Origin: Opitutia bacterium | GTDB taxonomy: Bacteria > Verrucomicrobiota > Verrucomicrobiia > Opitutales > T3Sed10-336 | Reading direction: 5' to 3' | DNA: 64,000 bases | NCBI GenBank assembly: GCA_050506795.1 | Contig: JBJHCF010000001.1 | Location: forward strand, 96,001-160,000 | Part shown: positions 23,057 to 43,372 of the stretch, one piece after another | How positions within the stretch are numbered: the first letter of the stretch is position 1 | How the letters are laid out: each line of letters opens with the position of its first letter | Notes under the pieces: model-generated | What the model saw: only the letters and a program-made list of their open reading frames with translations | What the model was told of the DNA's origin: nothing | Databases searched by the model: none | Program-made: the position numbers and the translations under genes

Positions 23057-23104
23057 GGGGGGGCGGTTGCGCGCATTTGAATCGTCCGGGACGGAGACAA
23101 CGCC

Positions 23105-24082
23105 ATGTTCATGATGTATAAAAAGGTTTCAATCGTTTCGGCCGTGAGAGCGGTGGTCGGGCTCCCGTTTTTTCTCGCGCCGCTGTTCGCCTCGGGCGAT
23201 GAGCTCCGAGTGGAGCTGAATCACGACGACTCGGCGGGCACGGTCACGGTCAATGTCCGGGGGGAGCATTTCACCACCCTGCATTACGGCGACGAGGCGC
23301 GCACTCCCTTCCTTTGGCCGGTGAAGGCGGAAGGCGGGGTGGGGGTGACCCGCAATTACCCCATGGGATCGGACGAACCCGCGAGCGGGGATCATCCGCA
23401 CCACCGCTCCCTGTTTTTGACGTTCGGAGATGTCAACGGTTACGACCATTGGCACCACCAAACGATTGCCACCCGCGAGGTGACCACGGGGCATGAGAAC
23501 GATTACGCGTGGATTCGGTTGCGCAATGAATGGTTGGACGGGGACGGCGAACCGCTGCTGAGTGAATCGCAGGAACTCCGCTTCTACGACCGGCCGGCGG
23601 CATCCCGGATTATCGATGTCATTTCCACCTTGCGGGCGGAATTCGGCGATGTGGTGTTCGGCGACGACAAGGAGGGCCTGATCGCCTTTCGTATTCGGCC
23701 CGAGATTCAGGGCAATCGCGCCGGCGTACTCACCAACGCCGCGGGCGAGCGGGGTGAGCGCAATGTGTATGGTAAACCCTCCCCGTGGATGGACTACTCC
23801 GGCGAGATCGAGGGATACGGGACGCGCGGCATCGCGTTGTTCGATCATCCCGACAATTTTCGGCATCCCACCTTTTGGCACGTCCGGGATTACGGTTTGG
23901 CGGCGGCCAATCCTTTCGGCGCGGGTTCTGTGGGGGGCGAAGACCGCGACGGCAGCCACCGGTTGGAGCACGGAGAATCCATGACTTTTGTTTACCGGAT
24001 TTTGGTGCATTCCGGAAATGTCGAAGAAGCGCGTGTCGGCCGCCACTATCAGCGTTTTGCCGAAACCGCCTATCCGAGATAG
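23105..24082 (+). CDS. Secreted DUF6807 ('PmoA family') protein
   Basis: Signal peptide, DHPHHRSL, DDKEG, DHPDN and WHVRDYGLAAANPFG. Confidence 0.75.
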   Translation: MFMMYKKVSIVSAVRAVVGLPFFLAPLFASGDELRVELNHDDSAGTVTVNVRGEHFTTLHYGDEARTPFLWPVKAEGGVGVTRNYPMGSDEPASGDHPHHRSLFLTFGDVNGYDHWHHQTIATREVTTGHENDYAWIRLRNEWLDGDGEPLLSESQELRFYDRPAASRIIDVISTLRAEFGDVVFGDDKEGLIAFRIRPEIQGNRAGVLTNAAGERGERNVYGKPSPWMDYSGEIEGYGTRGIALFDHPDNFRHPTFWHVRDYGLAAANPFGAGSVGGEDRDGSHRLEHGESMTFVYRILVHSGNVEEARVGRHYQRFAETAYPR

Positions 24083-24111
24083 ACTGAATTATATTAAGAT
24101 CGCACAGTGTC

Positions 24112-25386
24112 ATGAAAAGTTCATTACGAATCCAGCTCTCGATTATGATGTTTCTCCAGTTCTTTGTCTGGGGAGCCTGGTTTGTGACGATGGCGACTTA
24201 TCTGAGCGAGCTCGGTTTCACCGGGGCGGAGATTGGGCGGGCCTACAGCACCACGGCGATCGCCGCCATGATATCACCGTTCTTTGTGGGAATGATCGCC
24301 GACCGGTTTTTTGCGACCGAGCGGGTTCTCGGAGTATTTCATCTGCTCGGAGGCATCAGTCTCTTCTGGGCCTCCACCATCACATCCCCGGGACCCTTTT
24401 TCTGGGTGTTGATTCTACACACCATATTCTACATGCCCACCCTCGCGCTGGTAAATGCGTTGTGCTTTCACCAGATGAAGGACCCGGGTAAAGAGTTTCC
24501 GCCCATCCGGGTGCTTGGGACCATCGGATGGATCGCCGCCGGATGGATGATTGTGATGCTCAGTACACTCAGTGGAGCGAGCATCGAAGCCACCAGCACA
24601 CCGCTCAAGCTCGCGGCCGGATTCGCGGTGGTGCTGGGGATTTACTGCTTTTTTCTCCCGCACACCCCGCCGCGGGCCGCCGGGAAAAAGGTGACCGTGC
24701 GCGACGTGTTGGGCCTCGATGCACTCGGTTTGCTCCGGGAGCGATCGTTCGCCGTTTTTGTGGTGAGTTCGCTGCTCATCTGTATCCCGCTCGCATTCTA
24801 TTACAATTGGACGAATCCCTTTCTGAACGACGTCGGAATGGAAAATCCCGCGGGAAAGATGACCCTGGGGCAGATTTCGGAGATCGTCTTTCTGCTCGTG
24901 ATGCCATTTCTGTTCGTTCGTCTCGGCATCAAGCGAATGCTGATGATCGGCATGCTGGCCTGGGTACTGCGGTACGTTCTTTTTGCCTACGGCAATAATG
25001 AGGCTCTGGTTTTTATGCTCTATGCCGGCATTATTCTGCATGGGATCTGTTACGATTTCTTTTTTGTCGCGGGCCAGATCTACGTCGACAAAAAGGCGCC
25101 GGTGGAGATCCGGGGTGCGGCCCAGGGGTTTATTGCCTTTATCACGCTCGGATTGGGCATGTTTATCGGGTTTAACGTTTCCGGCTGGATCGTGGATACC
25201 AATACCATCGACGGCGTTTACGACTGGCGGGCGATTTGGATTCTGCCCGCCTTGATGGCGTTGGTCGTGCTGATCGGGTTTGCCCTCCTGTTCAGGGAAC
25301 GAAGCGTCTCCCCCGAATCCGGATTGACGGAAGAGGGGTTGCCCGCGCCGGCCAATCCCGCGCCGGTGGACCAGTCGGAGCGGTAG
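24112..25386 (+). CDS. MFS transporter, nucleoside:H+ symporter (NupG-like) family
   Basis: MMFLQFFVWGAW, GMIADRFF, IRVLGTIGWI and LHGICYDFFFV. Confidence 0.9.
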   Translation: MKSSLRIQLSIMMFLQFFVWGAWFVTMATYLSELGFTGAEIGRAYSTTAIAAMISPFFVGMIADRFFATERVLGVFHLLGGISLFWASTITSPGPFFWVLILHTIFYMPTLALVNALCFHQMKDPGKEFPPIRVLGTIGWIAAGWMIVMLSTLSGASIEATSTPLKLAAGFAVVLGIYCFFLPHTPPRAAGKKVTVRDVLGLDALGLLRERSFAVFVVSSLLICIPLAFYYNWTNPFLNDVGMENPAGKMTLGQISEIVFLLVMPFLFVRLGIKRMLMIGMLAWVLRYVLFAYGNNEALVFMLYAGIILHGICYDFFFVAGQIYVDKKAPVEIRGAAQGFIAFITLGLGMFIGFNVSGWIVDTNTIDGVYDWRAIWILPALMALVVLIGFALLFRERSVSPESGLTEEGLPAPANPAPVDQSER

Positions 25387-25426: not shown

Positions 25427-28400
25427 TCAGGGCAGTGTTACGTGGACCTTGGCGAATAGGTGGTTGGTGGAAAATTGACTTAAGGGGACGATTATCATGG
25501 CCCGCTGCCATTCGGAGTCGATCTGGTGTACGGTCGGTTGAGTGGTGATCGCTTCCCATGTATTGAGATCGGTGGAAACGAGGGTGGTGTAAATTAATCC
25601 GCTTTCCCGGCGACGAATAAATTCGATACGCAGCGCCGGTCCGGTTCGTCCCACCCAGCCGACACTGGCAACCGGAAGCCCCTTTGTTTCGATGCCACCC
25701 GGTGTCAGGGTGCTGCGGTCGGGGGCGGCGAGATCCATGTTGAATGCGTACTTCAGGAGGTTTTCCACTCCGTCTTGAAACGGGATGGCTTCGGGAATGG
25801 CGTCGGCGCCGGTGAGTCCGCTTCCTTCCATGGCGGAGGCAAACCGGCCAGGCTCATCGGTGAAGGCTCCGGTGATGCTTAAGTCTGTATCCAGGGTAAT
25901 CGTTTGCAACCGCGAAAATCCGTCGAGGGCGCCGGACCAACCGCCAAACACGGAATCTTTGGCGGGAACCGCTTCCACGTCGATAGAGTCGCCCTTCGGA
26001 AATTGGGTCCGGTAAGGGTATTCAGGGGGGGCGAGCGTGTTGACCATTATGATTCCCTCGCCGTTGCCGGTGCGATTCACTTCGATCATGCGGTATCCCG
26101 GAAGACGGAAGAACTGGATTGCAGTAGGAACCAGGCGGTTCTCCGTATCCCCGTGGCCGAGCCTTCCAGAAATCCCCGAGCCGAAGGTGAATACGGTGGC
26201 ATCTTCGGAAAGGAGAATCGTATGCGACGCCCCGGCGGCGGCGCCCGAAAGAGTATGTCCTGAAAGGTTTTGATGTTCCACAAGCACGGGTACCAGCGAA
26301 TTTTCGGTTTCCCCGGATCCCAGTCGGCCGTCGGCGCCGGCTCCAAAAGTAAACGATTCTCCTTCCGAGGTCAGGAGAATGGTATGGTTGTCTCCCAGGG
26401 CCGCTTTAATGACAGTATGCTCCGACAGGCTTTCGTCTTCAATGCGTGTCGGTACCATCCGTGCCGCCATGTCACCATGCCCCAGTTGTCCCTCAAGGCC
26501 CCGCCCGAAAGTGAATACCGTTCCGTCCGAGGTCAAAATCAAGGAATGGGCTCCGCCCGCCGAAATGCCGGTTATGGTCTTTCCCGACAGGATTTCGTGG
26601 TCGATTTTCGTGGGGATACGATTGTTTTGGATTTCTGCTTGTCCAAGCCTGCCCGACGCCGCGTGTCCGAAGCTGAAGGTGGTGCCATCGATCGCCCGCA
26701 AGAGAGTGTGTGCGGCGCCGGCGGCAATTTCGACGATGGCATGGCCGGCAAGGGAATCGGCTTCGATTGGGGTGGGGACCGTGCGATTTCCGGAGTCGCC
26801 GTGACCGAGTTGCCCGTGGAATCCACTGCCGAACGTGAAGACTGTTCCGTCGGACGACAATAAGACCGTGTATGACGAGCCGGCCGCAATGGCTTTTATG
26901 CTATTTCCGTCCAGGTTCTCGTGCGTGATTTCCGTTGGAACGTCTCGCGAAAGCAAGTCACCATGCCCAAGCGCGCCCAGGTTTCCCCAACCGAAGGTGA
27001 AAACCCGTCCGTCGGCGGAGAGTAAAACGGTGTGGTACTGTCCCGCCGCGACCTGGACTATCGCATGACCGGCGATACCTTCGTATTCGATCGGAATGGG
27101 AACGTGGCGTGGGTCGCTGTCTCCGTGGCCCAATGACCCGGCGGCCCCGGAGCCAAAGGTGAACACCGTTCCCTCGGAAGAGAGAACCACGGTATGCCAT
27201 TGGCCGGCGGCTACCATGGGTTCGACAACCCCGGGGATCACCGAAATGGTAAGAGGACGCTCGAGAGACAAATCGTTCTGATTGGTCGCGCGGAGCCGGA
27301 TAGCATACACTCCGACAGGAAGCGAAGAGGCGGTACGGAGTGTATCATCCACCACCAGAAATTTTCCATTGTCCTGATCTCCCTCTCCGGGAACCAAACT
27401 GAACGAGAATGTATCGTTGATCAAGCCGGTGGCGAGGAGTCTGCTCACCGGAGCATCGACTCCGGTGCGTTTGTTTCCGATCGTCCGGTTCCAGACAAAA
27501 ATGAATTCCGGGGACACCGCGAGGCTGAAGGTGGCGACGATCGTTTGGTTGGAAGCGATGGTCACCGTTCTTTCCGGGGCGGTACCGCTGATGCTCCCGG
27601 ACCATCCTTCGAAAACAAATCCGTAATCCGGCACAGCTTCGATGAGAAGGGTTGTTCCCTTCGCCACAGTAAGGGAATGCGGATAATCGACGATCGGTTC
27701 GCCGTTCACTCGAATCGATCCTTGTCCTTCGCCTGAGATGTCGATGGTTGCCGTCCGGTCGGGGGTTTCCGGCAACAGCCAGACCGTGGGGATTTCCTCA
27801 GGAACCAGCCGATCGTTGGTGTCGCCGTGCCCAAGTTCGTTGGAACGGCCGCGTCCGAAACTGAACACCGCGCCGTCGGAGACCATTATCAGGCTGTGTC
27901 TTCCTCTGCCGGATACGGCTATCGGCGTGTGCCCGGAAAGGTTTGCGTTTTCGATCGGAGTCGGTACCGCTCGGTTCTCGGTATCGCCGTGCCCGAGGCG
28001 CCCGTCGCCCCCCGGTCCAAAGGTGAACACGGTGCTGTCGGAGGAGAGGAGCATTGTCGCAGCTCCGGCGGAGATATCGGTGATCGTATGTCCGGCCAGG
28101 TTATCGTGCTGGAGTGCCGTCGGAACCAGTCTGCCATCCAGATCTCCGAGCCCCAGGGTTCCCGAATGGCCTGCTCCGAAGACAAAGATGGTTCCGTCCT
28201 CGGCCAGCAAGACGGTATGCGCAATACCGGCCGCGATTTTCCGAACCGGGTGTCCGGCTAGAGAGGCGTGTTCGATCTTCGTCGGCACAAAACGATTCTC
28301 GATATCCCCGTGCCCCAATCTTCCGGACCAGCCGTGGCCGAAGGTGAAAACCTCGCCGTCGGAGGACAATAGCACCACATGTTCGGAACCCGCGGCGATA

Positions 28401-29251
28401 TCAATGATGGTCGAGGAGGAGAGGCCCGCGTATTCAATCGGGGTAGGAACCAGTTTGTCGTCACGGTCGTCCCCGTGTCCCAGCCAGGCCCCCCTGCCGA
28501 ATGTGAACACGGTGCCGTCTGCCGAGAGAAGGACCGTTTGACTGTATCCGGCCGCGATCCGCGTGATTCGGTGGCCGGACAGATTCTCATGTTCGATCGG
28601 AGTAGGAACAAGGCGCCGTTCGGTGTCGCCGTGGCCGAGTCGACCCTCGAAGCCCCATCCGAAAGTGAAAACGGTTCCATCCGAAGCCAGGAGAACGGAG
28701 TGGGAACTTCCGGCCGCGACATCAATGATCAGGTATCCGTCAAGCTTCTCGTGTTCGATCGGTGTGGGTACCGATCGCGATTGGGTGTCCCCGTGTCCCA
28801 GCCTGCCCTGTGAGCCCCATCCAAAAGTGTAAACGTTGCCGTCGGCGGCCAGCAGCAGGCTGTGCCCGTCGTTCGCGGAGATTCCGGGTTCGACCGATCC
28901 AGGGACCACCGAGATGGTGAATACTTCTTCATGCGATCGGTCTTCCGAGTCGGTGGCGGCCAGTCGCACCGAGTATTGACCCTCTGACAAGGATTCGGCG
29001 GCGCGGAGTTCGTCGCCGACGATTTCAAAACGGTTGTTGTCATCTGCGCCCTCGCCATCAGCGAGGGCGAAAACGATCATACCATCCGTCGTTCCGGAGG
29101 CGTGCAGCGGGCTGACCGAACTGCCGGGACCGGTGCGTTCCTCTCCAATCGTCGTGTGCCAGACGATAATGGATTCCGGTGCCGAGGCGCAGACAATCGA
29201 ATAGACGAAGGCAAAGCATGCGCCTACGAGATAGGGAAGGGTGATTTTCAT
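25427..29251 (-). CDS. Secreted RCC1/BLIP-II repeat protein with two seven-repeat propellers
   Basis: 14 repeats of H-x-x-LLxxDGxVFTFGxGxxGRLGHGD, two cadherin-like and two InlB-B-like (FxGWSG) domains, and a C-terminal DGVENLLKYAFN module. Confidence 0.9.
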   Translation of the reverse strand: MKITLPYLVGACFAFVYSIVCASAPESIIVWHTTIGEERTGPGSSVSPLHASGTTDGMIVFALADGEGADDNNRFEIVGDELRAAESLSEGQYSVRLAATDSEDRSHEEVFTISVVPGSVEPGISANDGHSLLLAADGNVYTFGWGSQGRLGHGDTQSRSVPTPIEHEKLDGYLIIDVAAGSSHSVLLASDGTVFTFGWGFEGRLGHGDTERRLVPTPIEHENLSGHRITRIAAGYSQTVLLSADGTVFTFGRGAWLGHGDDRDDKLVPTPIEYAGLSSSTIIDIAAGSEHVVLLSSDGEVFTFGHGWSGRLGHGDIENRFVPTKIEHASLAGHPVRKIAAGIAHTVLLAEDGTIFVFGAGHSGTLGLGDLDGRLVPTALQHDNLAGHTITDISAGAATMLLSSDSTVFTFGPGGDGRLGHGDTENRAVPTPIENANLSGHTPIAVSGRGRHSLIMVSDGAVFSFGRGRSNELGHGDTNDRLVPEEIPTVWLLPETPDRTATIDISGEGQGSIRVNGEPIVDYPHSLTVAKGTTLLIEAVPDYGFVFEGWSGSISGTAPERTVTIASNQTIVATFSLAVSPEFIFVWNRTIGNKRTGVDAPVSRLLATGLINDTFSFSLVPGEGDQDNGKFLVVDDTLRTASSLPVGVYAIRLRATNQNDLSLERPLTISVIPGVVEPMVAAGQWHTVVLSSEGTVFTFGSGAAGSLGHGDSDPRHVPIPIEYEGIAGHAIVQVAAGQYHTVLLSADGRVFTFGWGNLGALGHGDLLSRDVPTEITHENLDGNSIKAIAAGSSYTVLLSSDGTVFTFGSGFHGQLGHGDSGNRTVPTPIEADSLAGHAIVEIAAGAAHTLLRAIDGTTFSFGHAASGRLGQAEIQNNRIPTKIDHEILSGKTITGISAGGAHSLILTSDGTVFTFGRGLEGQLGHGDMAARMVPTRIEDESLSEHTVIKAALGDNHTILLTSEGESFTFGAGADGRLGSGETENSLVPVLVEHQNLSGHTLSGAAAGASHTILLSEDATVFTFGSGISGRLGHGDTENRLVPTAIQFFRLPGYRMIEVNRTGNGEGIIMVNTLAPPEYPYRTQFPKGDSIDVEAVPAKDSVFGGWSGALDGFSRLQTITLDTDLSITGAFTDEPGRFASAMEGSGLTGADAIPEAIPFQDGVENLLKYAFNMDLAAPDRSTLTPGGIETKGLPVASVGWVGRTGPALRIEFIRRRESGLIYTTLVSTDLNTWEAITTQPTVHQIDSEWQRAMIIVPLSQFSTNHLFAKVHVTLP

Positions 29252-30897: not shown

Positions 30898-33800
30898 TTA
30901 ATCGGGTGCCAACCCCTGCTGAGGCCGGGTTTGTACGAGGTGAATTTGATCGTTCACCATAAATCCTTCGATGTCCTGGGGGGAGGAAAGGGCGGATTCG
31001 ATACTTTTGGCAACGGCGGCCAGGCGGCGGGCGGTGTTATCACGAAAGGCGTGGTCACGAGTGAAGGGGAAGTCGGAGTAGTCGGCGATGCCCTTTTCCA
31101 AAGCTCCCGGAGCGCCGGGGCGAAGGAAGTGGCTGTAGTTGCAGAAGGCGAGAGTGTTGACGGTGGCCGATGAGGTGCCGTTGCTATTCCCGACACCAAC
31201 GGTCAAGCGATACGGGGTACCGGGTTCGGCGGCGTCGGCCAGGGTGGCGCCGAGGCCGGGCGCGGCTTCGATGTAGACTTCGTCGGGATCGGCGGTCACC
31301 GGATGGATGGAGTGCAGAATGAAGGACAGGTCGGGGGTGATCAGGGGCTGCAGGATCACCGCCATGCCGCAGCGAATGGGGTCCACGCCGGACCGGCGCC
31401 GGTTATGAAAGGCTTTCAGCGTCCAGAGCGACGCCCAAACGGCGCGAATGCCGTTGGCCAGGTGGTCCGGAAGCAGGTTGGGCACGGAGGTGTAGATGCC
31501 GGCTCCCGCCCCGCCGGCGCCGTCTTCCGCGCTGGCGCTGGAGCGGGCAATGAGCGGTGTGTCGCGCGGGAAGGTGTCCGCCGCCCGTTCGAGAATCTCC
31601 CGGGGCACGGGAAGCCGGCTGATCGTCTCCTGCAGGGATTTTAATTTAGGCCCAAGGTCTTCGGCATCCGCATTAACGAGACCTTCGGTGGCGTCCGTGC
31701 CGTGATCCCGCAATGCCTTTTCCAGGACCCCGAAGGGGATAACCAGGGTCGGCGGTACGGTGAAGGCTTTGGATTGGTCAGCCAGATCAGCCAGACGGCG
31801 CAGGGCGGCGGCTTTGTGTCCGGTTCGTTCAACGGTGACCTGCCCCAGCGGCAGGACCGGGGGCTCGGTGCTCAAATCGAGGGATGTTTCCGTGCCGCGA
31901 CTGCGAGGTGTTGTTTTCACCTCGCGGGCCGCGGTTTCGCCGTCACCGTTGTCCTCCTGCCAGGTTAATCCTTCGGCATTCACTTTGAGGAAAAGGCGGC
32001 GGCTTTCGGCCCGACGAAGCTTGTCCGTTTCGTCGCCGGATTCGAGATAAACGAGCGGTATTCCGGCCTGCCGGGCGCGCACCGCCAGATGGGAGAGCAG
32101 GGGGATCGGCTCGAGGACCACCAATCCGGTCACCGGGGCCGGGATGTCTTCATCACCGGTGGCCTTTGGCAAAAGCACGATGGTGGCCTCGGCACAATCT
32201 TCTTTGATTTGCTCCAATCTTTCGACCGCGTTGAGGCGGCCGCGGGCAGTACCCGGCGCCAGGGGCTCACACGAGTGCTCGCCTGCGGTGTTGCCCTGTT
32301 CCCGCAGCAACAGGCTGTTCAGTTTGGCCAGTTGAAAGACCAGGTCGCGACGCAGTTCCGCTTCACAGAACAGGCTGATGTCTTTTTCCGGGATGCCCAG
32401 CGCTTGCCCTATGGTCTCGGCGGCGCGGCGAAACAGGTCGATAACCCGATCGGCGATGGTGTCGCACAACCTGCGAACGCGACCGATCGAAGCCTTCAGT
32501 CTGGCGAGGGCGAGAGGGTCGGAGGCCCGGAAGCCCGGGAGGAGACTGTCGATTTCGTGGCGAATGGCGCGGATTTCTTCGGTCCAGGCGCCGTTCAGCT
32601 CCATCTGCCGCAGGGTCAGGCTCAGCGTTTCCAGCGCCTTCTTCCATTGAAACCGTTTGGCGGATGTCAAACCGTTCAACAAGTCGCTGAGGGCGGGAAA
32701 GGCGAAAGCTTCCAGTTCGATTTCCGCCAGCCGGAAGGCCTGGGCGGAATGGGCTTCGCGTTTTTCCGCTTCGGGGACCAACACAGCCCTCAGGTGGGTG
32801 ACGGCATGAAATCGTTTGAAAGAGCCGGAAGCGCCTTGGGGGTTACGGGAAGAAATCTCGAGGAATCTCTGCAGAGCGGCCAGCCCGTCCCCGGAGAGCT
32901 CCTCGCGCAGGGGTTCCAGGCGTTCGGCCAGGCTTTGGGTGTTGAAAAAGGTCTGCAGTTCGCGATGGAAGGTTTGAAATTCGGAGACAAATTCCGCCGG
33001 GTAGTCCCCGTTTTCGATCCTCGCGAGCAGTTTCTCCGAGGTCTGCAAATCCTCCGGTCCGGCGCAACGGTGAAGCTTGTTCTGGAGGGAGTGTTTGATC
33101 TCGTTCTTGAGCTCTTTGGGGATGTCGTTTCGGTGAGCGATATCGCGGATACGAGTCAAGGGTTCCGCCCGGGTAAAGGGGGTGTCGTACGACGGCAGGT
33201 TGGCATGGATACGCCGAAGAATCAGTGCGTTGTCGTCATTTTTCCAGGCTCGGAGTTTGTCGTCGATAGCGGCGCCGGTTCTGGCGTGGTGGCTTGGCCG
33301 GAAGTGCCGGGAGTCCTCGCGGCAGGGAATTCGGCCGGTGTGCAGCCAGCGCAGGTAAACTGCCAGAAAAGCCAGGTTTTCCGGCGGCAGGGGATCCGCG
33401 GATTCGTCCAGGAGGTGCTCGACCCCTTGCAGTTTTTCACGCCAGCTCCGGGCTTTCCGGTCGGTATCGATGAGGCGTGCGGCAAACGGGTCGGACGAAG
33501 ACGCGGCGGGGGAGGGGCGGGGCGAAGCAGGAGAATCCTCGTCCGTGCCGTGCGATTCGCCGATCAGGGCGGCCAGCCGGTCCCGTGACTCGGTCAGGCG
33601 CTCCGGTGGATCGGGCCAGACCTCCATGATGGCGCTACCTTGAAATTGTATCGCCTGCAGCCGTTCGATGAGTCCCCGAATTCCGCGGTCGTTTTCGCCT
33701 GCGGGACCGGTGAACAACGGAAGGTGGGCGTCACGGTCGCCGTAATTCTCATGCAGGTGGAGGTGAACAACCGGCACTTCAGGTGAAAGTCGGTCGAGGA

Positions 33801-34353
33801 ATCCCAGATAGTCGTTGCGAGTGGCGGCACAGAGATTGGCGTGACCCAGGTCGAAACAGAGGCCCACGTGGCGGTTTGGCAGCTTCGGCTGAGCCCGCAG
33901 AACCTTAAAGAACGCGTTGAAATCCTCGGGCCCGGTGAGGGGAGTGTTCTCCAGGGCCAGAACCACATTCATGGCCGCCGTTTGTCGAATCAGGGGTTCG
34001 ATTGCTTCCAGGAAAGCTTCCGGGCCCTGTTCGGTTTGCAAGTGAATATTGAATACAGCCGCACCGAGGTCGCGGGTCAACGCCAGGGCCGGTTCCGCCG
34101 GGACCGACTCTTCCGGTCGCAGCGGATCCAGCCCGAGGGGGGCGTGGACGGACAGGCGAATATCGTGGTCCCGAGCGGTTCGCCGGATCGCATCCCGCGT
34201 GTCCCGGTCGAGATCCGACTCGGTCCAGGTCTTGTCGGGGAACCACTCGAACGCCTTGAACCCGTGCGAAACCGCGAATTCAAAGGGCGCCATCAGCGCA
34301 GGAGCGAATGCGGCGGTTTGATTGCCGACACGGATTTCGAAAAGCGGCGTCAT
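30898..34353 (-). CDS. Xylose-isomerase-like TIM barrel fused to a phosphoglucan water dikinase (PWD/GWD3)-like protein
   Basis: TIM-barrel motifs ALENT, DLGHAN and HLHEN. PWD-like SWREKL, RPSHHA and PLTRIRDIAHRNDIP..IKHSLQNKLHRCAGPEDL. Phospho-His motif LSHLAVRARQ. PPDK-type nucleotide domain RSSASAED, QDIEG and VQTRPQ. Confidence 0.85.
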   Translation of the reverse strand: MTPLFEIRVGNQTAAFAPALMAPFEFAVSHGFKAFEWFPDKTWTESDLDRDTRDAIRRTARDHDIRLSVHAPLGLDPLRPEESVPAEPALALTRDLGAAVFNIHLQTEQGPEAFLEAIEPLIRQTAAMNVVLALENTPLTGPEDFNAFFKVLRAQPKLPNRHVGLCFDLGHANLCAATRNDYLGFLDRLSPEVPVVHLHLHENYGDRDAHLPLFTGPAGENDRGIRGLIERLQAIQFQGSAIMEVWPDPPERLTESRDRLAALIGESHGTDEDSPASPRPSPAASSSDPFAARLIDTDRKARSWREKLQGVEHLLDESADPLPPENLAFLAVYLRWLHTGRIPCREDSRHFRPSHHARTGAAIDDKLRAWKNDDNALILRRIHANLPSYDTPFTRAEPLTRIRDIAHRNDIPKELKNEIKHSLQNKLHRCAGPEDLQTSEKLLARIENGDYPAEFVSEFQTFHRELQTFFNTQSLAERLEPLREELSGDGLAALQRFLEISSRNPQGASGSFKRFHAVTHLRAVLVPEAEKREAHSAQAFRLAEIELEAFAFPALSDLLNGLTSAKRFQWKKALETLSLTLRQMELNGAWTEEIRAIRHEIDSLLPGFRASDPLALARLKASIGRVRRLCDTIADRVIDLFRRAAETIGQALGIPEKDISLFCEAELRRDLVFQLAKLNSLLLREQGNTAGEHSCEPLAPGTARGRLNAVERLEQIKEDCAEATIVLLPKATGDEDIPAPVTGLVVLEPIPLLSHLAVRARQAGIPLVYLESGDETDKLRRAESRRLFLKVNAEGLTWQEDNGDGETAAREVKTTPRSRGTETSLDLSTEPPVLPLGQVTVERTGHKAAALRRLADLADQSKAFTVPPTLVIPFGVLEKALRDHGTDATEGLVNADAEDLGPKLKSLQETISRLPVPREILERAADTFPRDTPLIARSSASAEDGAGGAGAGIYTSVPNLLPDHLANGIRAVWASLWTLKAFHNRRRSGVDPIRCGMAVILQPLITPDLSFILHSIHPVTADPDEVYIEAAPGLGATLADAAEPGTPYRLTVGVGNSNGTSSATVNTLAFCNYSHFLRPGAPGALEKGIADYSDFPFTRDHAFRDNTARRLAAVAKSIESALSSPQDIEGFMVNDQIHLVQTRPQQGLAPD

Positions 34354-35035: not shown

Positions 35036-35938
35036 CTACAGCCCGGACCAGATCAGGGCCAGAGGGACTACCGGAGTCAGGAGTAGGATTCGGGAGAGGC
35101 ACCGGGCTGACAGGCCGTCGACCAGGTGACCGAACTGCGCCAACAGGAATAGGTTCACCGCCGCCGCCGCCACCGCGATCAGGATGGGAGCGAAGTCAGC
35201 GTTGACCGGCATTGGCGCCAGCGCGAGCGCCAGCAGGGCCACGCCCGCACTGATCCAGGCCGACTTGAGATTTCTTTGGAAAAGCCGGGGTGCGAAAGGC
35301 TTTCTGGCTTTGAGCCGGGCGTTCCATTCGAGCACTGAGGACGTCCAGAAACCGAGGGTCAGCAACACCAGCAGCAGGACCAGCAGCGAAGCAACCATGG
35401 CAGGGGCGAAAACTCCGTTGACCAATACAAAAAGGCTGATCAGGCCAGTGCCGAAAAGCGCGTGAGCGATCTCTCGAGGCGCGAGGATTTCGATGTGGCG
35501 GAAGTAGAACAGCCCGCATACCAGATAGATGGCGGCTAACGAGCCCAGCATGAACAGCCCCGTTTGTTCCAGCCAGGTCATCCGGGTAGCGGTGATGATC
35601 ACCAGCGAGATCAGCACGAAGGGGCAGATGGTCAGCAGGGGCCAGCGCTCGGCGTTGAAAAATCCGATCCGCGGATCGCCGGATTCGAGGTTGGCGTTCC
35701 AAACCGCCCGCACGCTGCGGTTTAGGATCAGAAAAAGCCACATCGAACCGAAAACCACCATATAGTGCGGGCCGTGCAGTGGAACGTGCAGGATGTGGGC
35801 AAACAAGGCAAGCCACACGGCGATGACAGCCGGAGTGTCCAAAGCCATAAGCGCAAACCAGTGCCACAGAGGAATTTTCTCTAATGATTTCGATTCCAAT
35901 CTCGCACCAAAATGCTGGGGCATTTCTTTCACTGGCAA
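35036..35938 (-). CDS. Hypothetical polytopic membrane protein (possibly distant UbiA-like)
   Basis: About nine hydrophobic segments; no catalytic motif recognised. Confidence 0.65.
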   Translation of the reverse strand: MPVKEMPQHFGARLESKSLEKIPLWHWFALMALDTPAVIAVWLALFAHILHVPLHGPHYMVVFGSMWLFLILNRSVRAVWNANLESGDPRIGFFNAERWPLLTICPFVLISLVIITATRMTWLEQTGLFMLGSLAAIYLVCGLFYFRHIEILAPREIAHALFGTGLISLFVLVNGVFAPAMVASLLVLLLVLLTLGFWTSSVLEWNARLKARKPFAPRLFQRNLKSAWISAGVALLALALAPMPVNADFAPILIAVAAAAVNLFLLAQFGHLVDGLSARCLSRILLLTPVVPLALIWSGL

Positions 35939-36198
35939 GCGGAAACTGGCCGGGATTGGAGGGTGAACTTGGACCTTGCGGTGAATTTAGTGACTGAGAA
36001 AAGCCTGGAGTAGTGGGCTTCGCCGCGGACCATGCGATGTAAAAAAAATGTAATTGCTTGTAAGTTAATATATTATGGATTGAGTGGAGCTCTGGATACT
36101 GATTAGAAAGGGTGTGACTGGCAGTTGTTTTACTCAATTCAGTCAAAAACAGCATTCCCTGCAAACGCCGGCATCTTGTCATCGATCCATCGCCTTCT

Positions 36199-36702
36199 AT
36201 GGAAAATCCGCAAAAAAACCGCATGACCACCAGGGCGGCCCTGGAAGAATTGGTCGAAAATATTCGATGCTCCGACAAACGTGTGGAAGATCCGCCTGCG
36301 TCCGCGAAGGAACGGCGGCTTCAACCGGTCTCCCTTGAGGGGCATCGTCGGTCGCGGACCGGGCATTTCGTCGCTTCAGTTGCCAGCGAGAGCGAGCTGG
36401 AGCGGGAGCGGGAGCGATTGGATCGTAGGTCCGTTCAACTCGACCGTATGGAGGAGATCCTGCGCAAGATGTTGCGTGCGGTCGAGCGAAGGGAAGACGA
36501 AATCCGCGAACGGGAACGCCGCCTGGCCCGCTCGGAGATAGACGACGACATGAAAATCGAAATCCTTCGCCGGGAACAGGCCTTGCGGGAAGCGGAGGAA
36601 CGGCTCGCCGAGCGCGAGCGTTTCGTCAGGGAAACGGAAACTCTTTTGCTGGAGAAGGCCCGGGAGATTAAAGGATCGCATCCCGGTTCGGCGAGGACTT
36701 AG
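36199..36702 (+). CDS. Hypothetical coiled-coil protein
   Basis: E/R-rich heptad-like C-terminal half. Confidence 0.55.
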   Translation: MENPQKNRMTTRAALEELVENIRCSDKRVEDPPASAKERRLQPVSLEGHRRSRTGHFVASVASESELERERERLDRRSVQLDRMEEILRKMLRAVERREDEIRERERRLARSEIDDDMKIEILRREQALREAEERLAERERFVRETETLLLEKAREIKGSHPGSART

Positions 36703-37274
36703 GAGTCTGCCGGGGTCGCCGTCCCGCGAGTCCTGGATGTCCGCAGCGCGAGATATGCGATTCCGCCCAGATAGGCGGTGATAAGGGAAATGGCCGCGAT
36801 TGCCAACCAGCGGAATTCGGCCTTTGCGCTGCCGGCTAAAAGCCCGAGCACCATGACAGCCAGCATGACGGTCAGAAGGTAGTGGCTGAGCTCGAAGTGG
36901 GAGATTCGACGCCCTGGGGCAGCTATACGAGCCCGCGTTGGAGAGGCTTCCCGACTCTGCCTTTCCGCCGGGAGCGGCGGTCGGGGGTGGGCGCCGGGTT
37001 CCACCAACGAAAAGCGCCTTTCCGACCTCCGGCGCTGTTGTGAGACACCGAAGGTCGGTTGGTTGGGGAGGAGCGAGGGATGAAATCGATCATTGCCACC
37101 GAATGTTTCCTTCTTGCCGAAGCGGTCCGACACCCGCACCCAGCGATTGAGATCGCTTTGCCAGTAAAGGAGATCTTCGGACAGGAGGCCGCGCTCCCAA
37201 AGGGTGCGCAGGGCGTCCTCGCTCGTGGAGATGGGATCCCTTTGGCCCGGCTTGGTGATGTAAACCTTTTTCAT
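36699..37274 (-). CDS. GYF_2/DUF4339-like domain membrane protein
   Basis: N-terminal LRTLWERGLLSEDLLYWQSDLNRW and two C-terminal TM helices. Confidence 0.6.
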   Translation of the reverse strand: MKKVYITKPGQRDPISTSEDALRTLWERGLLSEDLLYWQSDLNRWVRVSDRFGKKETFGGNDRFHPSLLPNQPTFGVSQQRRRSERRFSLVEPGAHPRPPLPAERQSREASPTRARIAAPGRRISHFELSHYLLTVMLAVMVLGLLAGSAKAEFRWLAIAAISLITAYLGGIAYLALRTSRTRGTATPADS

Positions 37275-37482
37275 GAGGAGAGTTCCGGCGAATCGGGAGA
37301 ATGACCAGGGTTGTCCCGCGTTCGGCACACGTCGATTGCCGGCGAGACCATCATAGGTTGGAGGCACGACCGGTTGATCGTATGCCGATAAACATACGCT
37401 CAAAATCTATCCCGTAAAATAAGGATAAAGATTGATTTGCCATAGGGGAATCCCCTATGGATGGATCGCCAATTGTTTTTGC

Positions 37483-37842
37483 CTAAATTGGCCGGATGTA
37501 AACGAAGACCACCGCCAACAAACCGAGTGCCAGCGTGATCCACCACAAGGGCGTCGCGGCGGAGGGTTTACGATTGATGGCGACAATCAATCCTCCCAGG
37601 ACCAGCCAGATTACGATTTTGGCGATAATCCAGGGGTGAAAGGTGTTGTCGTAGAGTCGTGCCAGCAGACCGAAACCCGCCACCAGCATGAGCAGCAGAC
37701 CGACTCCGCTGGTAATGGAGCCCAGACGACGCACCTTTTTGTCGTCGCTTCCGGCCATACTGCGTCCGAGAAGGGCGCCGTAACCCATAAAAAGCATTAT
37801 CACCCCGAGAAGGTGCAGCACAGAATAGAACTGAGGAGACAT
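37483..37842 (-). CDS. Small four-TM membrane protein (SirB2-like)
   Basis: YSVLHLLG, GVGLLLMLVAGFGLL, WIIAKIVIW and C-terminal RPI. Confidence 0.7.
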   Translation of the reverse strand: MSPQFYSVLHLLGVIMLFMGYGALLGRSMAGSDDKKVRRLGSITSGVGLLLMLVAGFGLLARLYDNTFHPWIIAKIVIWLVLGGLIVAINRKPSAATPLWWITLALGLLAVVFVYIRPI

Positions 37843-37988
37843 AGGGCGGACTTTATGAACAGGTATTCCGATGGTGCAACAGGTTTTGTCTTCTGAATAC
37901 GCAGAATCCGGCCACTGGAAACGGAACGGCTTCTCAAAGACGATAGATATTTCGGAACCTTTTGGCGGATCCTGTGTCTTGGCGCCAG

Positions 37989-38660
37989 ATGAATCCTGGT
38001 ATTCTTTTCCTCGGGCGGATGTATGGCTGCGCCGCTTTGGCGCTTTTTTTTTCGGTGACCGCGGTCGCCGAAACCTCAAACGTCGAGGTCAAGCCGGCGC
38101 CCCAACCGGATGAACCGCAGATTGTTTACCGGTTGACGGATGATGCCGACCGCTGGGACCCGGAGATCCGTAAAAGGATCGTTGAGTCGATGGATTACGC
38201 GGTGGGTCTCTACAACGAACTGGGGGTTTTTCAGAAGAAAATCACGGTGCGTTACAATCCGGCGACCCCCACGGCCGACGGGAATTTCAACGGACACATC
38301 AACTTCGGCGGGCAGATGAGTCCGCGGACCGCGTTACACGAGATCGCTCACACTCTCGGGGTCGGCACCCACCGTCGGTGGCGGCAGTTGACCGAGGACG
38401 GTCGCTGGACCGGAGAGCACGCACTGGCCCTTCTGCGGGAGTTCGACGGCCCTGATGCGGTACTGAATGCCGATCGGCACCATTTCTGGCCTTACGGGTT
38501 GAATTACGAACACGAATCCAGTGAGGAAAACGACCGTCGTCACGTGCTGATCGTTGAAGCCCTGGTCCGCGACATGGGCCTCGGACCCGAGGTGCCGGTC
38601 ACCGCGACCCCCGAGTCGGCGACTCCCGCGGCGGCCGCGGGCGAGGATACGGATTCCTAG
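37989..38660 (+). CDS. Secreted zinc metallopeptidase-like protein
   Basis: Signal peptide, TADGN, LHEIAHTLGVG (HExxH) and HFWPYGLNY. Confidence 0.75.
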   Translation: MNPGILFLGRMYGCAALALFFSVTAVAETSNVEVKPAPQPDEPQIVYRLTDDADRWDPEIRKRIVESMDYAVGLYNELGVFQKKITVRYNPATPTADGNFNGHINFGGQMSPRTALHEIAHTLGVGTHRRWRQLTEDGRWTGEHALALLREFDGPDAVLNADRHHFWPYGLNYEHESSEENDRRHVLIVEALVRDMGLGPEVPVTATPESATPAAAAGEDTDS

Positions 38661-38713: not shown

Positions 38714-40096
38714 CTATCCCAGACTGTCGACGTCCCAGCCTTCACGGGCGGGATTCTTAAGCAGGGCGTTGGCGGTCGGATTGTTGGGAATCCGCATATT
38801 CTCGGCGTCGAAAATCACACTTTCACCGGTGCGAATGGCGAGTGTTCCCAGGAGCACCATTTCATTAAGCGGAGCGGCGATTTCGAAGTTGGAGCACGGT
38901 TGGGAGCCGTCGCGGATACCGGCCAGCCAGTCCTCCACGATATTACCCCGTGCCCTGGGCAGCGTACGCCCGGGGCGCATTGAAGGGGTTTCACGAAACT
39001 CCTGCCAAAGGGCTTCGGGGTACAGACGGGGACTTCCCGGTCGCATGTTCGGGTGGGCGATAACGCCCTTCTCACCAATCATGATCAGGCCGCCGTCACC
39101 CCAATCCGACACCGGCGGAAAGTCGTATCCTTCGGGAAGTTCGGGTTGAGAGGGGCTTTCGTACCAGGTGATCTTCACCGGTGGCTTGCCGTTTCTTTCC
39201 GCGAAACGATAGGTTACGATCGAACCGTCCGGGGTGTAGAGCGGGTTGACCTCTTTCACTTCCACGTCGATCCGTTCCGGGTGGGGCAGGTCGAGAACCC
39301 ACACCGGCGTGTTCAGGGTGTGGCAACCGATATCGCCCAGCGCACCGGCGCCATATTCCCACCAGCCCCGCCAGAAGAAGGGATGGATGTCGTTGTTGTA
39401 GCCCAGATCCTGCGTCACCGGGCCCAGCCAAAGATCCCAGTCCAGGCCTTCCGGAACATCCTGGGCCGGGGGGTACTCGTGACGGGTTTCGCGGAACCCG
39501 ACCCCGCTGGTCGGACGGTCGGTCCAGGCGATAATCTCGCTTACGTCGCCGATCAGTCCGGCCTGGTACCACTCCTTGACGAGGCGGATGCCTTCGTAAC
39601 CTTGCCCCTGGTTTCCCATTTGGGTGATCAGACCCTTTTCGCGGGCCAGGTCGCGCAGGACGCGGCCTTCCCAAACCGAATGGGTCATGGGTTTTTGAAT
39701 GAAAACGTGTTTTCCCATTTTCATCGCCATATAGGCGACGGGGAAGTGAGCCCGATCGTGAGTGGAGACGCCGACCGCATCGATCTGATCACCCATTTCC
39801 TCAAGCATCTTTCGAAAGTCCTGATAGACCTTTGCTTCCGGCCAGCGCTCCGAGGACTGACGCAGGTTCCAACTGTTGAGGTCGACATCGCAGAGGGCCA
39901 CCACGTTGGTGTCGCTTGCCCCGCGCACATCTCCTCCACCCATGGAACCGACACCGACCCATGCGACATTGATCCGGTTATTGGCGCCGAGCACGTTAAT
40001 CGGCAGCAGGTAGGGGACCGTCGCCGCGGCGGCGAGGCGACCGATAAAGGAGCGACGACTGAGTGGGGCGGCGGATTGGCTGGAGGTTCTTTGCAT
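38714..40096 (-). CDS. Tat-exported Gfo/Idh/MocA family oxidoreductase
   Basis: SRRSFI, VGVGSMG, QKPMT, QMGNQG and GDIGCH. Confidence 0.9.
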   Translation of the reverse strand: MQRTSSQSAAPLSRRSFIGRLAAAATVPYLLPINVLGANNRINVAWVGVGSMGGGDVRGASDTNVVALCDVDLNSWNLRQSSERWPEAKVYQDFRKMLEEMGDQIDAVGVSTHDRAHFPVAYMAMKMGKHVFIQKPMTHSVWEGRVLRDLAREKGLITQMGNQGQGYEGIRLVKEWYQAGLIGDVSEIIAWTDRPTSGVGFRETRHEYPPAQDVPEGLDWDLWLGPVTQDLGYNNDIHPFFWRGWWEYGAGALGDIGCHTLNTPVWVLDLPHPERIDVEVKEVNPLYTPDGSIVTYRFAERNGKPPVKITWYESPSQPELPEGYDFPPVSDWGDGGLIMIGEKGVIAHPNMRPGSPRLYPEALWQEFRETPSMRPGRTLPRARGNIVEDWLAGIRDGSQPCSNFEIAAPLNEMVLLGTLAIRTGESVIFDAENMRIPNNPTANALLKNPAREGWDVDSLG

Positions 40097-40117
40097 AAGC
40101 TGATTCGAGTCAAAGAA

Positions 40118-40984
40118 TCAAGCCTCAGTCAAGCCGATACGCCGGATCTCGAACGGTTCGTCAAGCAACTCGCCGAAGGCCAGCCGGGGGCCGTTCCGGT
40201 CACCGGTCAATTCCTTGATTTCCGCCTCCGTCAGCAGCAGGGAAGCGGTGGAAAACGCATCGGCCATCGCGGCTGTGGCGGCGATAATCCACACCCGGCG
40301 AAACATCGTTTCCGGTTGTTCCTCTTCCGGGTGGAGAATATGGGCTCCTTGAAACCCGGTGCCCGAAGCGCTCAAAGCCTCTTCTCGCAAGGAGATTTTT
40401 TCCTGATGCGTTTCGCCCTGAAGCACGGCGGGCCATTCCCGTGGCCCCATGCACAGAAGCGTGCTTCCGGCGCAGCCCACCAGTGCGGATTCGATCCCCG
40501 CTTCGCGAAGAACCCCAGCCAAGTGGTCCAGGGCGTATCCCTTGCCGATTCCCCCCAGGTCGATCTGGCGTCCGGGTTCGATGCATCGCGCGAGCGGTCG
40601 GTCGGGCGCCAGTTCAATGCGTCCGGCGAGCGGCGGAAGATCCCCCTCCTGTCCCTGCTTGCGGTGTTCGATGCGAGCGCCGAGGGTCACATCGAAAAGA
40701 CCTCCGGTCACCCCGTAGGCGAGGGCTGCCAGCTTCAGGCATTCGTAGGTCGCTTCCTCAATAAAAAGCTGTTCTCCGGCCCGAAGGGAATTGATGCGTG
40801 AAATGTCGCTTCCTTCGCGGTAGCGGCTGAGTACGGACTCCAACCGCTCCAGTTCACGAAAGCAGGCCCCTGCTGTTCTCAGGGCGTGGGCGCGGTCCGG
40901 GTGTTCGATCCGCAGGGAAAAGATGGTGTTCATTGCCTGCTGGTCGAAGCGGTGCAGGTTGGGAATTTCGCTTAGTCCAATCAT
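40118..40984 (-). CDS. apbE: FAD:protein FMN transferase (ApbE family)
   Basis: AMNT, SDISRIN, GLFDVT, DLGGIGKGYALD, HILHP and ADAFSTA. ATGA overlap with the upstream gene. Confidence 0.85.
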   Translation of the reverse strand: MIGLSEIPNLHRFDQQAMNTIFSLRIEHPDRAHALRTAGACFRELERLESVLSRYREGSDISRINSLRAGEQLFIEEATYECLKLAALAYGVTGGLFDVTLGARIEHRKQGQEGDLPPLAGRIELAPDRPLARCIEPGRQIDLGGIGKGYALDHLAGVLREAGIESALVGCAGSTLLCMGPREWPAVLQGETHQEKISLREEALSASGTGFQGAHILHPEEEQPETMFRRVWIIAATAAMADAFSTASLLLTEAEIKELTGDRNGPRLAFGELLDEPFEIRRIGLTEA

Positions 40985-42522
40985 GAATCCTCCTCCGGTT
41001 CCGCCAGGTAGGCATCCCACAGGTCGTTGCGCAGGTACAGGAAAACGGGGGTTTGGGCGCGCAACCCCCGTGGAAATCCGGTGTGGGTGTCCTCCAGTTG
41101 AATTTCGGCGGCGGCGAGTTGATTGGGCAGGACCAGGAGCACCGGGAAGTCCGTCCCGTTCTCTGGTATCTCCGCCCAGTACCCGTGGGCGGGCAGTGAC
41201 CGCAGGTACCAGGGCAATGGCCAGTAATGGGCGCCGATAATGCCGATCGGGCCGGTCCTAATCTCAGGAAACTCCTCCGCCAGTTCGAGCAGCCATCGCT
41301 CCATCCGATCGACATCCGTGGCGGTTGGCACATAGGCATATGGGTTTCGGGCATCCGAGGCGAAGCGACCGGTGGCGCGGTCGGTTTGTTTGTGTTGCCA
41401 GACCAGCAATGCCGCCAAAACCAGACCGACGGCAACCAGCCGCGGAACCCACCCTTTCCGCCGTTCCGGGTTTAGTGTTAAGACGGCGCCCGCTGCCAGG
41501 CAGAGGTGCAGCCAGGCGGTCAGAATCAGCCAGGGCGTCTTGTAGGAGATGAACGAATACACGAGCCATTGGAGTACGACGGCGTAGACGAGAAAACGGA
41601 TCCATTCCCCTTTCGGTCTCCTGAAGCTAAGGAAAAATGCCCCGGCGCCGGCCAGGAGGATGCCGGCCTCCGTCCACCAAACCCCGCCCTGAAACTTCGG
41701 CCAAAGCATGAGCCACGCATAATAGCCGAAGGGTTTATCATGGCCCGCCACGGTTTCATAAACCAGAAAGGTGCGAAAAAAATCGACAATGCCGGAAGGA
41801 TTCGAGCCAAGGTTGGTGTAAAACACGGCGACCGTCAGCGCCATTATCCCGACCGCTAAAAGCAGATTGCCCAGGTGGTCTTCGAATAGTCTCCGAATGT
41901 TCTCCCAACTCTGCCAGGGTTTTCGCTCCGCCCACACCGCGATTGCGGCGACACCCCAGGCGAAGAATACGATAACGAATGTTTCCCGGGGGGCCATGAG
42001 AAGGCCGGCGGTCAGGCCAATCCACACGGCGCGACGACGGCCCGGTTTCTCCATGTAGTGGAAAAGTGCGAGCAGGGTGCCGAGGGCCAGCAGGCCGAAG
42101 AGAGTCTCATGGATGAACATCCGGCTGTAGTAAACCAGCAGCGGGGAGGTCGCGATCAGAGCGGCCGCGGCCAGCGCACCGAGGCGGCTGATCCAGGGCA
42201 TGAAGCCCGTTGCGAGCAGGACCGTGAGGGCGCCGCACAGGGCCGGACCGAAGCGCAGGGTGCCGGCGCTGAGTTCCGTCCAGGTGGTTTCCCCCCTGAT
42301 CCGAGCGATGGGGGAGGCCAGGGCGGTCAGGAGCGGCCCGTGAAAATGGTGGGGATCGAAACGGTAGTCCCCCGCCTCCAGCCGGTCGGCCAGAATGCGG
42401 GCCCCGGTGGCTTCGTCCGCGTGGAGCGGTCGATCCCCGAGCGCTTCGAAACGAAGAAAAAGCCCGGCCCCGAACAGGACAAGAACCGCCAGGTAAATCC
42501 ATATATCTCTTTCGGCTTTCAT
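40981..42522 (-). CDS. GT-C membrane glycosyltransferase (TIGR03663/Agl23-like)
   Basis: RPLHADEA, YRFDP..HGP, YYSRMFIHE, YKTPW, NPYAY and WPLPWYLR. Confidence 0.8.
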   Translation of the reverse strand: MKAERDIWIYLAVLVLFGAGLFLRFEALGDRPLHADEATGARILADRLEAGDYRFDPHHFHGPLLTALASPIARIRGETTWTELSAGTLRFGPALCGALTVLLATGFMPWISRLGALAAAALIATSPLLVYYSRMFIHETLFGLLALGTLLALFHYMEKPGRRRAVWIGLTAGLLMAPRETFVIVFFAWGVAAIAVWAERKPWQSWENIRRLFEDHLGNLLLAVGIMALTVAVFYTNLGSNPSGIVDFFRTFLVYETVAGHDKPFGYYAWLMLWPKFQGGVWWTEAGILLAGAGAFFLSFRRPKGEWIRFLVYAVVLQWLVYSFISYKTPWLILTAWLHLCLAAGAVLTLNPERRKGWVPRLVAVGLVLAALLVWQHKQTDRATGRFASDARNPYAYVPTATDVDRMERWLLELAEEFPEIRTGPIGIIGAHYWPLPWYLRSLPAHGYWAEIPENGTDFPVLLVLPNQLAAAEIQLEDTHTGFPRGLRAQTPVFLYLRNDLWDAYLAEPEEDS

Positions 42523-42548
42523 GTACAAAAGAGCCACGCTATAAAACA

Positions 42549-43310: not shown

Positions 43311-43372
43311 GCTTTCCGAAGGTTGCCTCCGCTTTGGTCGGACCCCTTTCGAGCGGGCCGTGAAGCTGGAAT

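Follow-up and report, generated by a model that had tools for sequence, protein, structure and literature searches.

A predicted bacterial PWD-type glucan dikinase fused to a metallo TIM barrel in an Opitutia genome

A gene in the genome of an Opitutia bacterium (assembly GCA_050506795.1) encodes a protein in which a metallo TIM barrel precedes a predicted core of the phosphoglucan,water dikinase (PWD) type, an enzyme class that, with glucan,water dikinase (GWD), phosphorylates starch in plants and algae. The gene lies in a 64,000-nucleotide stretch of contig JBJHCF010000001.1 (positions 96,001 to 160,000), which as a whole we call the window and in whose numbering gene coordinates are given. 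We propose, with a probability of roughly 0.6, that it encodes an ATP-dependent PWD-type glucan,water dikinase with a fused candidate glucan phosphatase, and that the protein would belong to a module for phosphorylating and dephosphorylating storage alpha-glucan; its substrate, the position phosphorylated and the reaction of the barrel are inferred from sequence. Compared with the plant enzymes, the new elements are the bacterial setting, a barrel that replaces the N-terminal CBM20 and a conserved module around the gene, and this window is distinctive for the scattering of the module and for the negative search for its glycoside hydrolase family 13 (GH13) partner.

A dikinase core of the PWD type

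The gene is a single uninterrupted frame of 1151 codons (Table 1), and its start is backed by homologues, whose alignments begin at residues 3-7. A sequence-only reading of this DNA had ended the gene at 33500 rather than 34353; that extent covers the dikinase core and cuts the protein at residue ~284, at the end of a Ser/Pro-rich linker, so that the core was seen and the N-terminal barrel missed. Three Pfam families account for most of the protein: PF01261 (AP_endonuc_2, xylose-isomerase-like) at residues 24-260 (88.2 bits, cut-off 31.1), PF22973 (GWD1_pHisD; cut-off 27) and PF01326 (PPDK_N; 103 bits, cut-off 27). The barrel thus occupies the place of the N-terminal starch-binding module. The central domain contains the motifs SWREKL (residues 303-308), RPSHHA (352-357) and EPLTRIRDIAHRNDIP...HRCAGPEDL (LPSYDTPF...GPEDL, 386-436). 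The predicted catalytic histidine, His755 (codon 32089-32091), is invariant in 27 of 27 sequences and lies in LSHLAVRAR, within the longer motif LSHLAVRARQ at 753-762. All the motifs that the sequence-only reading had quoted are present in the translated frame, in columns that are invariant in the 27-member alignment of bacterial relatives.

Table 1. Extent and domains of the barrel-dikinase gene, in window numbering
Feature	Position	Strand	Basis
Whole gene, TIM barrel and PWD-type dikinase core	30898..34353	-	Translation, Pfam, homologue alignments
Residues 1-262, endonuclease-IV/MJ1311-like metallo TIM barrel	33568..34353	-	PF01261, AF2, Foldseek, hidden Markov model alignment, invariant columns
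Residues 263-290, Ser/Pro/Ala-rich linker	33484..33567	-	Sequence; AF2 confidence falls after ~265; columns unconserved
Residues ~291-690, all-alpha central (acceptor) domain	32284..33483	-	Invariant columns; profile match to 9ha9
Residues 698-801, GWD-type phosphohistidine domain	31951..32262	-	PF22973, 60.5 bits; genome search, same place
Residues 843-1146, ATP/AMP-binding (ATP-grasp) domain PPDK_N	30916..31827	-	PF01326; PDB matches

That the resemblance to plant dikinases is not a matter of chance motifs follows from their invariance and from an exhaustive search of 1.84 billion protein cluster representatives, in which 357 representatives match at E<=1e-30. Eukaryotic PWDs bearing CBM20 align over residues ~285-1145 with E values of 1e-146 to 1e-133, and in a wider CBM20 set the identity to algal and plant enzymes is 35-39% over ~860 residues. 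These matches include proteins named by their source as phosphoglucan,water dikinase, from Porphyridium purpureum and Cucurbita pepo, together with sequences from Chlorokybus, JGI 'Mesen1' and an MMETSP transcript. In potato GWD1 the central domain is all-alpha and the histidine domain rests beside it, at the place where, in the part of the structural paper available, the glucan is thought to be phosphorylated (PMC13553574). Positions 513-696 of a profile of 27 bacterial relatives (A1) match the crystal-structure chain of that central domain, 9ha9, with E 4.6e-13, a match that spans just the last ~180 residues of the domain. Taken together, the comparisons support the assignment of residues ~290-1151 to a PWD-type glucan dikinase core.

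The ATP domain does match the families of phosphoenolpyruvate (PEP) synthase, PPDK and rifampicin phosphotransferase, and NCBI names some relatives 'PEP/pyruvate-binding domain-containing protein'. Even so, it is extremely unlikely that the protein is a PEP synthase, PPDK or rifampicin phosphotransferase with an unusual domain order. With a cut-off of 883 bits, the best NCBIfam model for PEP synthase gives 97.4, on residues 839-1144 only, and the rifamycin phosphotransferase model NF041857 scores 80.4 bits against 999, on residues 890-1149 only; these are 8-11% of the curated cut-offs, all within residues 839-1150. PDB chains of PEP synthase and rifampin phosphotransferase likewise match residues ~907-1150 only, and Pfam finds neither a PEP-utilising C-terminal barrel nor a rifampicin-binding domain in the protein. 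PEP synthase and PPDK have the order ATP domain, histidine domain, C-terminal PEP/pyruvate barrel, which the window protein reverses, and rifamycin phosphotransferase, also unlike it, has ATP-grasp, rifampicin-binding and C-terminal histidine domains in that order. The histidine domain is the GWD-specific PF22973 and precedes the ATP domain, the order on which the sequence-only reading had relied. That reading's choice of GWD/PWD over PEP synthase or rifampicin phosphotransferase is borne out by the low NCBIfam scores, the PWD matches and the position in the tree described below.

The fused barrel and its paralogue

The AF2 model of the barrel, built with 33 sequences, has a pLDDT of 94.6 and consists of eight strand-helix units. 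Foldseek ranks MJ1311 (3wqo, TM 0.74) first; UlaE, psicose epimerases and the African swine fever virus homologue of endonuclease IV come next. There are at least 500 PDB matches, and all those shown belong to the xylose-isomerase-like superfamily. Among 23 barrels from many phyla, 13 His, Asp or Glu residues are invariant: H70, H104, E135, D168, H171, H197, H199, H201, E202, D206, D208, H210 and E244. In a HMMER alignment H104, E135, D168 and H171 pair with H109, E145, D179 and H182 of Escherichia coli endonuclease IV, which we take to be zinc ligands. In a second such alignment, with residue numbers counted by hand, H70, H104, E135, D168, H171, H197, D208 and H210 pair with His56, His96, Glu129, Asp162, His165, His191, Asp204 and His206 of the Mycobacterium tuberculosis enzyme, eight of the nine metal-binding residues listed for it in the available part of the published description (PMC3731287). 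Matches to endonuclease IV chains themselves are weak (5zhz, E 9e-6; 1qtw, E 0.012), and the weakness of the latter argues against orthology. An identity as the cobamide phosphodiesterase CbiR was rejected, since NF041277 reaches 51.3 bits against a cut-off of 105.

A second protein of this kind, which we call P350 (~350 amino acids), recurs beside related genes in other bacteria. It is a paralogue of the barrel (hhalign probability 96%, E 1.9e-9) that repeats the ligand pattern and has a helical segment inserted; its model has a pLDDT of 92.4, and its best PDB match is Thermotoga endonuclease IV, a weak one with a TM score of ~0.5. Since the conserved residues tell more than the fold, the fused barrel may be read as a multi-metal phosphoesterase acting on phosphorylated glucan, that is, as a candidate glucan phosphatase. 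According to the portion of the literature consulted, the characterised cleavers of phosphate esters in the superfamily are endonuclease IV and CbiR (PMC7733943).

It is also conceivable that the dikinase acts on alpha-glucan and that the barrel is an isomerase- or epimerase-type enzyme, a phosphodiesterase for another linkage, or a substitute for CBM20 that holds the substrate. The closest structures, MJ1311 (epimerase-like by its title), UlaE and psicose/tagatose epimerases, would fit such a role, and the barrel sits exactly at the CBM20 position of eukaryotic PWDs. Epimerases of the xylose-isomerase-like superfamily use a single metal with four ligands, however, whereas 13 His, Asp or Glu residues are invariant here across phyla and eight of them align to metal ligands of endonuclease IV; a pure binding module, for its part, would need no intact metal site. 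The superfamily is broad enough to accommodate these alternatives, comprising isomerases, dehydratases, CbiR and endonuclease IV in the partial text of the source (PMC7733943). We consider a non-phosphatase barrel doubtful, and continue to favour a phosphoesterase. A further AP_endonuc_2 TIM barrel (399 amino acids) is encoded in the window, at the end of a stretch (59888-62774, plus strand) that begins with a UDP-glucose pyrophosphorylase-family gene; as kin of the fused barrel this protein (61575-62774) was rejected beyond the superfamily level (hhalign probability 0.1%).

A recurrent module, dispersed in the Opitutia genome

Among the 120 best relatives listed by a word-indexed search, 94 combine PF01261, PF22973 and PF01326, and the barrel is absent from the other 26. 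Many are named 'phosphoglucan,water dikinase' by JGI, and NCBI uses 'TIM barrel protein' as well as the name mentioned above; no NCBIfam model names the window protein, its GWD-like paralogue, P350 or the GH13 partner. A single-protein query of genome contigs found no relative. An alignment-based pattern scan of one genome per species did: 318 stretches matched, 295 of them encode a relative, and the best 80 (L001-L080) were compared. Judged by their record titles, these loci represent Desulfobacterota, Nitrospirota, Verrucomicrobiota, Planctomycetota (among them Scalindua and Anammoxibacter), Gamma- and Betaproteobacteria, Acidobacteriota and Chloroflexota. All but one are labelled as metagenome-assembled genomes (MAGs), the exception being L052, from a Desulfobacterota isolate. 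After clustering of their open reading frames and labelling by BLAST against reference pieces, by which the PWD-like gene could be called in 72 of the 80, a same-strand order recurred: GWD1-like dikinase, TIM-PWD-like protein, P350, GH13. The GWD-like gene is immediately upstream in 36 of the 53 loci with room for it, P350 is immediately downstream or fused in 57 of 67, and the GH13 partner (~435 amino acids) lies at most 3.5 kb downstream in 25 of 55. This operon was found in at least seven phyla.

The components of the module are also linked by gene fusions. Two loci encode a triple fusion TIM-PWD-P350 of 1489-1502 amino acids (L008:11715-16184 and L009:3277-7785), seven encode a P350-GH13 fusion of ~780-850 amino acids (L028, L035, L048, L053, L063, L064 and L078), and at L077:6694-10245 barrel and dikinase are separate adjacent genes. 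The GWD-like dikinase of the operon has 1010-1190 amino acids, with one or two Ig-like PF23166 modules, a GWD histidine domain and PPDK_N, and its profile matches the potato GWD1 central domain over ~450 residues (E 5e-127), from which it appears that bacteria hold GWD1-type and PWD-type enzymes side by side. The GH13 partner has a mean column identity of 68% and is closest, among solved structures, to alpha-amylases and GlgE; as we read the motifs, it keeps the four signature regions with Asp/Glu/Asp at the catalytic positions. Beyond these genes, those that recur most often nearby encode a GlgA-type starch/glycogen synthase (16 loci), a GH57 branching enzyme (9 loci), a second GH57 (7 loci) and GlgB (6 loci). 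A DUF4912 protein adjoins the module in eight loci (for example L051:15848-16651).

In the Opitutia genome (4.94 Mb in 82 contigs, estimated 97.8% complete) the module is dispersed. It has two PF22973 genes, the window gene and, ~66 kb away, a GWD-like gene (G000:C1:57599-60628; 1009 amino acids) that is surrounded by the housekeeping genes purL, lpxC-fabZ and lpxA and whose product carries the N-terminal Ig-like module of GWD1 (PF23166). The P350 orthologue is on another contig (G000:C62:5187-6239) and is 41% identical to P350 of an Opitutales MAG. The window gene follows a peptide deformylase gene on the same strand after a gap of 36 bases, and an aldo-keto reductase gene lies downstream. 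A promoter-like site upstream of the deformylase gene, together with that gap, allows co-transcription of deformylase and dikinase but does not show it; counts in the promoter and terminator scan were no higher than in shuffles. We treat the neighbours of the three scattered genes as chance neighbours because they recur nowhere in the 80 loci, and this extends to the open reading frame 35196-36278, to the metallo-beta-lactamase-fold protein beside the GWD-like gene and to two open reading frames beside P350. Glycogen genes, which the sequence-only reading had suggested looking for, are present: two GlgA, GlgB and glycogen phosphorylase (GlgP) score above their cut-offs, and a GlgC candidate, at 423 bits, falls about 2 bits short of its cut-off of 424.9. 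The GlgA-type synthases are at G000:C26:30275-31711 (524 bits) and G000:C40:29502-30947 (515 bits; in a 661-residue frame).

Several of our own findings pull against the proposal of a glucan-phosphorylation module with a phosphatase barrel. Here the gene stands outside the operon, and deformylase and aldo-keto reductase recur in none of the 80 loci; neither a single-protein query nor a 23-row profile found the GH13 partner in this genome, estimated 97.8% complete. No PF22973 gene turned up in 400 other genomes sampled from the phylum or in 14 controls, and from the former result the module is accessory and patchily distributed. The 1151-residue protein has no recognisable carbohydrate-binding module, as Pfam finds neither CBM_20 nor Ig_N_CWD1 in it. 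As to the barrel, the Foldseek comparison cannot split endonuclease IV from epimerases, the best match, MJ1311, being titled D-tagatose-3-epimerase-like, and E244, the candidate for the ninth ligand, is invariant just past strand 8 but not covered by the HMMER alignment to endonuclease IV.

Some of these points could also be cited for a different acceptor. Dikinases for small acceptors exist, and the acceptor might be a small molecule or another polymer, the family then being dikinases akin to PEP synthase that act on a soluble sugar or a metabolite processed by the barrel; bacterial PWD-like proteins lack a carbohydrate-binding module, and no glucan gene stands beside the window gene. We regard this as unlikely, because the whole 860-residue core, central acceptor domain included, is homologous to PWD/GWD, the GWD-like partner has the Ig-like PF23166 modules of GWD1, and the operon recurrently holds a GH13 with full catalytic motifs and genes for glycogen synthase and branching. 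An alpha-glucan therefore remains the acceptor that we favour.

The origin of the gene was examined in a tree of 67 rows and 1002 columns (IQ-TREE, short search, SH-aLRT support only), which is without eukaryotic GWD1 sequences, has an unresolved backbone and a long outgroup branch, and does not show which way any transfer between bacteria and eukaryotes went. A long, fully supported branch parts GWD-like from PWD-type proteins. All 37 bacterial PWD-like rows, whether TIM-fused, barrel-less or C-terminally extended, form one clade (support 99), outside which the CBM20 forms fall into several groups of unresolved order; with the root on the bacterial GWD-like proteins, eukaryotic PWDs surround that clade as an unresolved basal grade. 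Phyla are mixed within the bacterial clade, which suggests transfer among bacteria. The window protein pairs with a protein of an Opitutales MAG (98) and the GWD-like protein of the genome with one of the same MAG (100), a pattern that fits joint inheritance of the two dikinases and a verrucomicrobial host. Could the gene instead be an algal PWD, present through recent transfer or contamination, or a non-functional relic in decay? Its patchy occurrence and the basal position of eukaryotic PWDs would be compatible with this, and a figure legend in the Goniomonas genome paper allows that GWD may have reached some bacteria by transfer (PMC6260743). The frame is intact, however, with all catalytic and ligand residues in place; the G+C content of the gene is that of its surroundings, on a 315-kb bacterial contig with bacterial neighbour genes; and the bacterial clade (SH-aLRT 99) has its own TIM fusion, with both dikinases tied to one Opitutales MAG, as inheritance within bacteria would predict. 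Recent algal origin or decay is thus very unlikely.

The remainder of the window offers further observations. Five successive open reading frames without Pfam match (35196-38660; 360, 101, 234, 154 and 232 amino acids) lie just upstream of the deformylase-dikinase pair. The regions 21674-25386 and 38714-47358 encode several GFO/IDH/MocA oxidoreductases (one with a twin-arginine translocation signal) and GH2, GH43, GH39 and GH127 hydrolases, the gene content of a polysaccharide degrader; in these same regions a DUF6807 protein adjoins a transporter of the nucleoside:H+ symporter family. An ImuB-like (impB/mucB/samB) gene (12102-13634, plus strand) followed by one for a DnaE2-type DNA polymerase III alpha subunit (13766-16882, plus strand) looks like a damage-inducible mutasome cassette. 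On the minus strand, 25427-29251 encodes a 1274-residue protein with ~14 RCC1 repeats and a Flg_new_2 (InlB B-repeat-like) domain. The segment 2001-4000 has a G+C content of 0.443 against ~0.60 elsewhere, with two open reading frames (2105-3277 and 3290-3748) that lack a Pfam match, and may be foreign DNA.

A proposed cycle and its eukaryotic counterparts

By analogy with its family, the protein would be cytoplasmic and its C-terminal ATP-grasp domain would bind ATP. His755, on a swivelling phosphohistidine domain, would take the beta-phosphate while the gamma-phosphate passes to water, and, moved by that domain, the beta-phosphate would reach the all-alpha central domain and be transferred there to a hydroxyl group on an alpha-1,4-glucan chain. 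The most likely acceptor is a glycogen-like polymer that the cell itself stores. A glucan substrate is suggested by the surroundings of related genes, which are flanked by GWD1-like dikinases, GH13 proteins, GlgA-type synthases and GH57/GH13 branching enzymes, and by the glg genes of this genome. The barrel would be a metal-dependent phosphoesterase that removes phosphate from the phosphorylated glucan. With the GWD-like dikinase and P350, the protein could thus take part in a cycle in which glucan is phosphorylated, opened, degraded and dephosphorylated, much as GWD/PWD and SEX4/LSF2 act in plastids. A further-reaching and more tentative suggestion is that the barrel and P350 make up a class of metal-dependent glucan phosphatases unrelated to SEX4, LSF2 and laforin, and that a complete reversible cycle of two dikinases and two phosphoesterases, often with its own GH13, acts on the storage polysaccharide of bacteria from at least seven phyla. 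Under that suggestion, the presence of both GWD1-type and PWD-type enzymes in bacteria would make the GWD/PWD split older than, or independent of, the use to which eukaryotes put it in starch.

Our literature searches turned up no characterised bacterial GWD or PWD, in agreement with the sequence-only reading, which knew of no such counterpart, and no description of the barrel fusion; figures and supplements were outside their scope, and trees published there may show the bacterial clade. In the partial texts at hand, glucan phosphorylation by GWD/PWD is treated as a hallmark of starch-storing eukaryotes, a 2026 preprint states that GWD has never been seen in glycogen accumulators, according to a figure legend in a 2026 review neither the mechanism of glycogen phosphorylation nor the enzyme responsible is known (PMC13666283), and in the available part of the 2026 paper on the structure of potato GWD1 neither bacteria nor prokaryote occurs as a word (PMC13553574). 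A bacterial module would open the mechanism of these large enzymes to study in a tractable system, provide a candidate route for the phosphate in bacterial glycogen and yield further data on how starch metabolism arose; should the phosphatase cycle of barrel and P350 prove true, the origin of starch phosphorylation would be reopened. There is practical interest as well, in enzymes for making phosphorylated starch.

The closest known counterpart of the window protein is PWD/GWD3 (EC 2.7.9.5) of plants and algae. Both have the central helical, GWD-type phosphohistidine and C-terminal ATP domains in identical order, and the GWD/PWD split of the tree does not separate them. PWD/GWD3 begins with CBM20, whereas the window protein has the metallo TIM barrel in its stead, is bacterial and predicted to be cytoplasmic, and belongs to a bacterial clade of its own. 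GWD1 (potato R1, Arabidopsis SEX1; EC 2.7.9.4) represents the same enzyme family and mechanism; the window protein matches its central domain weakly and in part (E 4.6e-13) and is without PF23166 modules. As N-terminal starch-binding modules GWD carries CBM45 and PWD CBM20, neither of which is present in the window protein.

For the barrel, the comparisons lie elsewhere. MJ1311 (3wqo) is its best match in both sequence and structure. With endonuclease IV it has in common the TIM barrel fold and eight of nine metal ligands, and it differs in its fusion to a dikinase and in the additional invariant residues H199, H201, E202 and D206. Its likeness to SEX4, LSF2 and laforin lies in the proposed role alone: these are cysteine phosphatases of the dual-specificity fold, the barrel is a multi-metal TIM protein, and Pfam finds no dual-specificity phosphatase domain in the window protein. 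As described in the accessible part of one account, glucan phosphatases of the SEX4/LSF2 type strip the phosphate added by GWD/PWD and form a pair, one C6-preferring and the other C3-specific (PMC12892837), and this pair is paralleled by the two dikinases and two barrels of the bacterial module.

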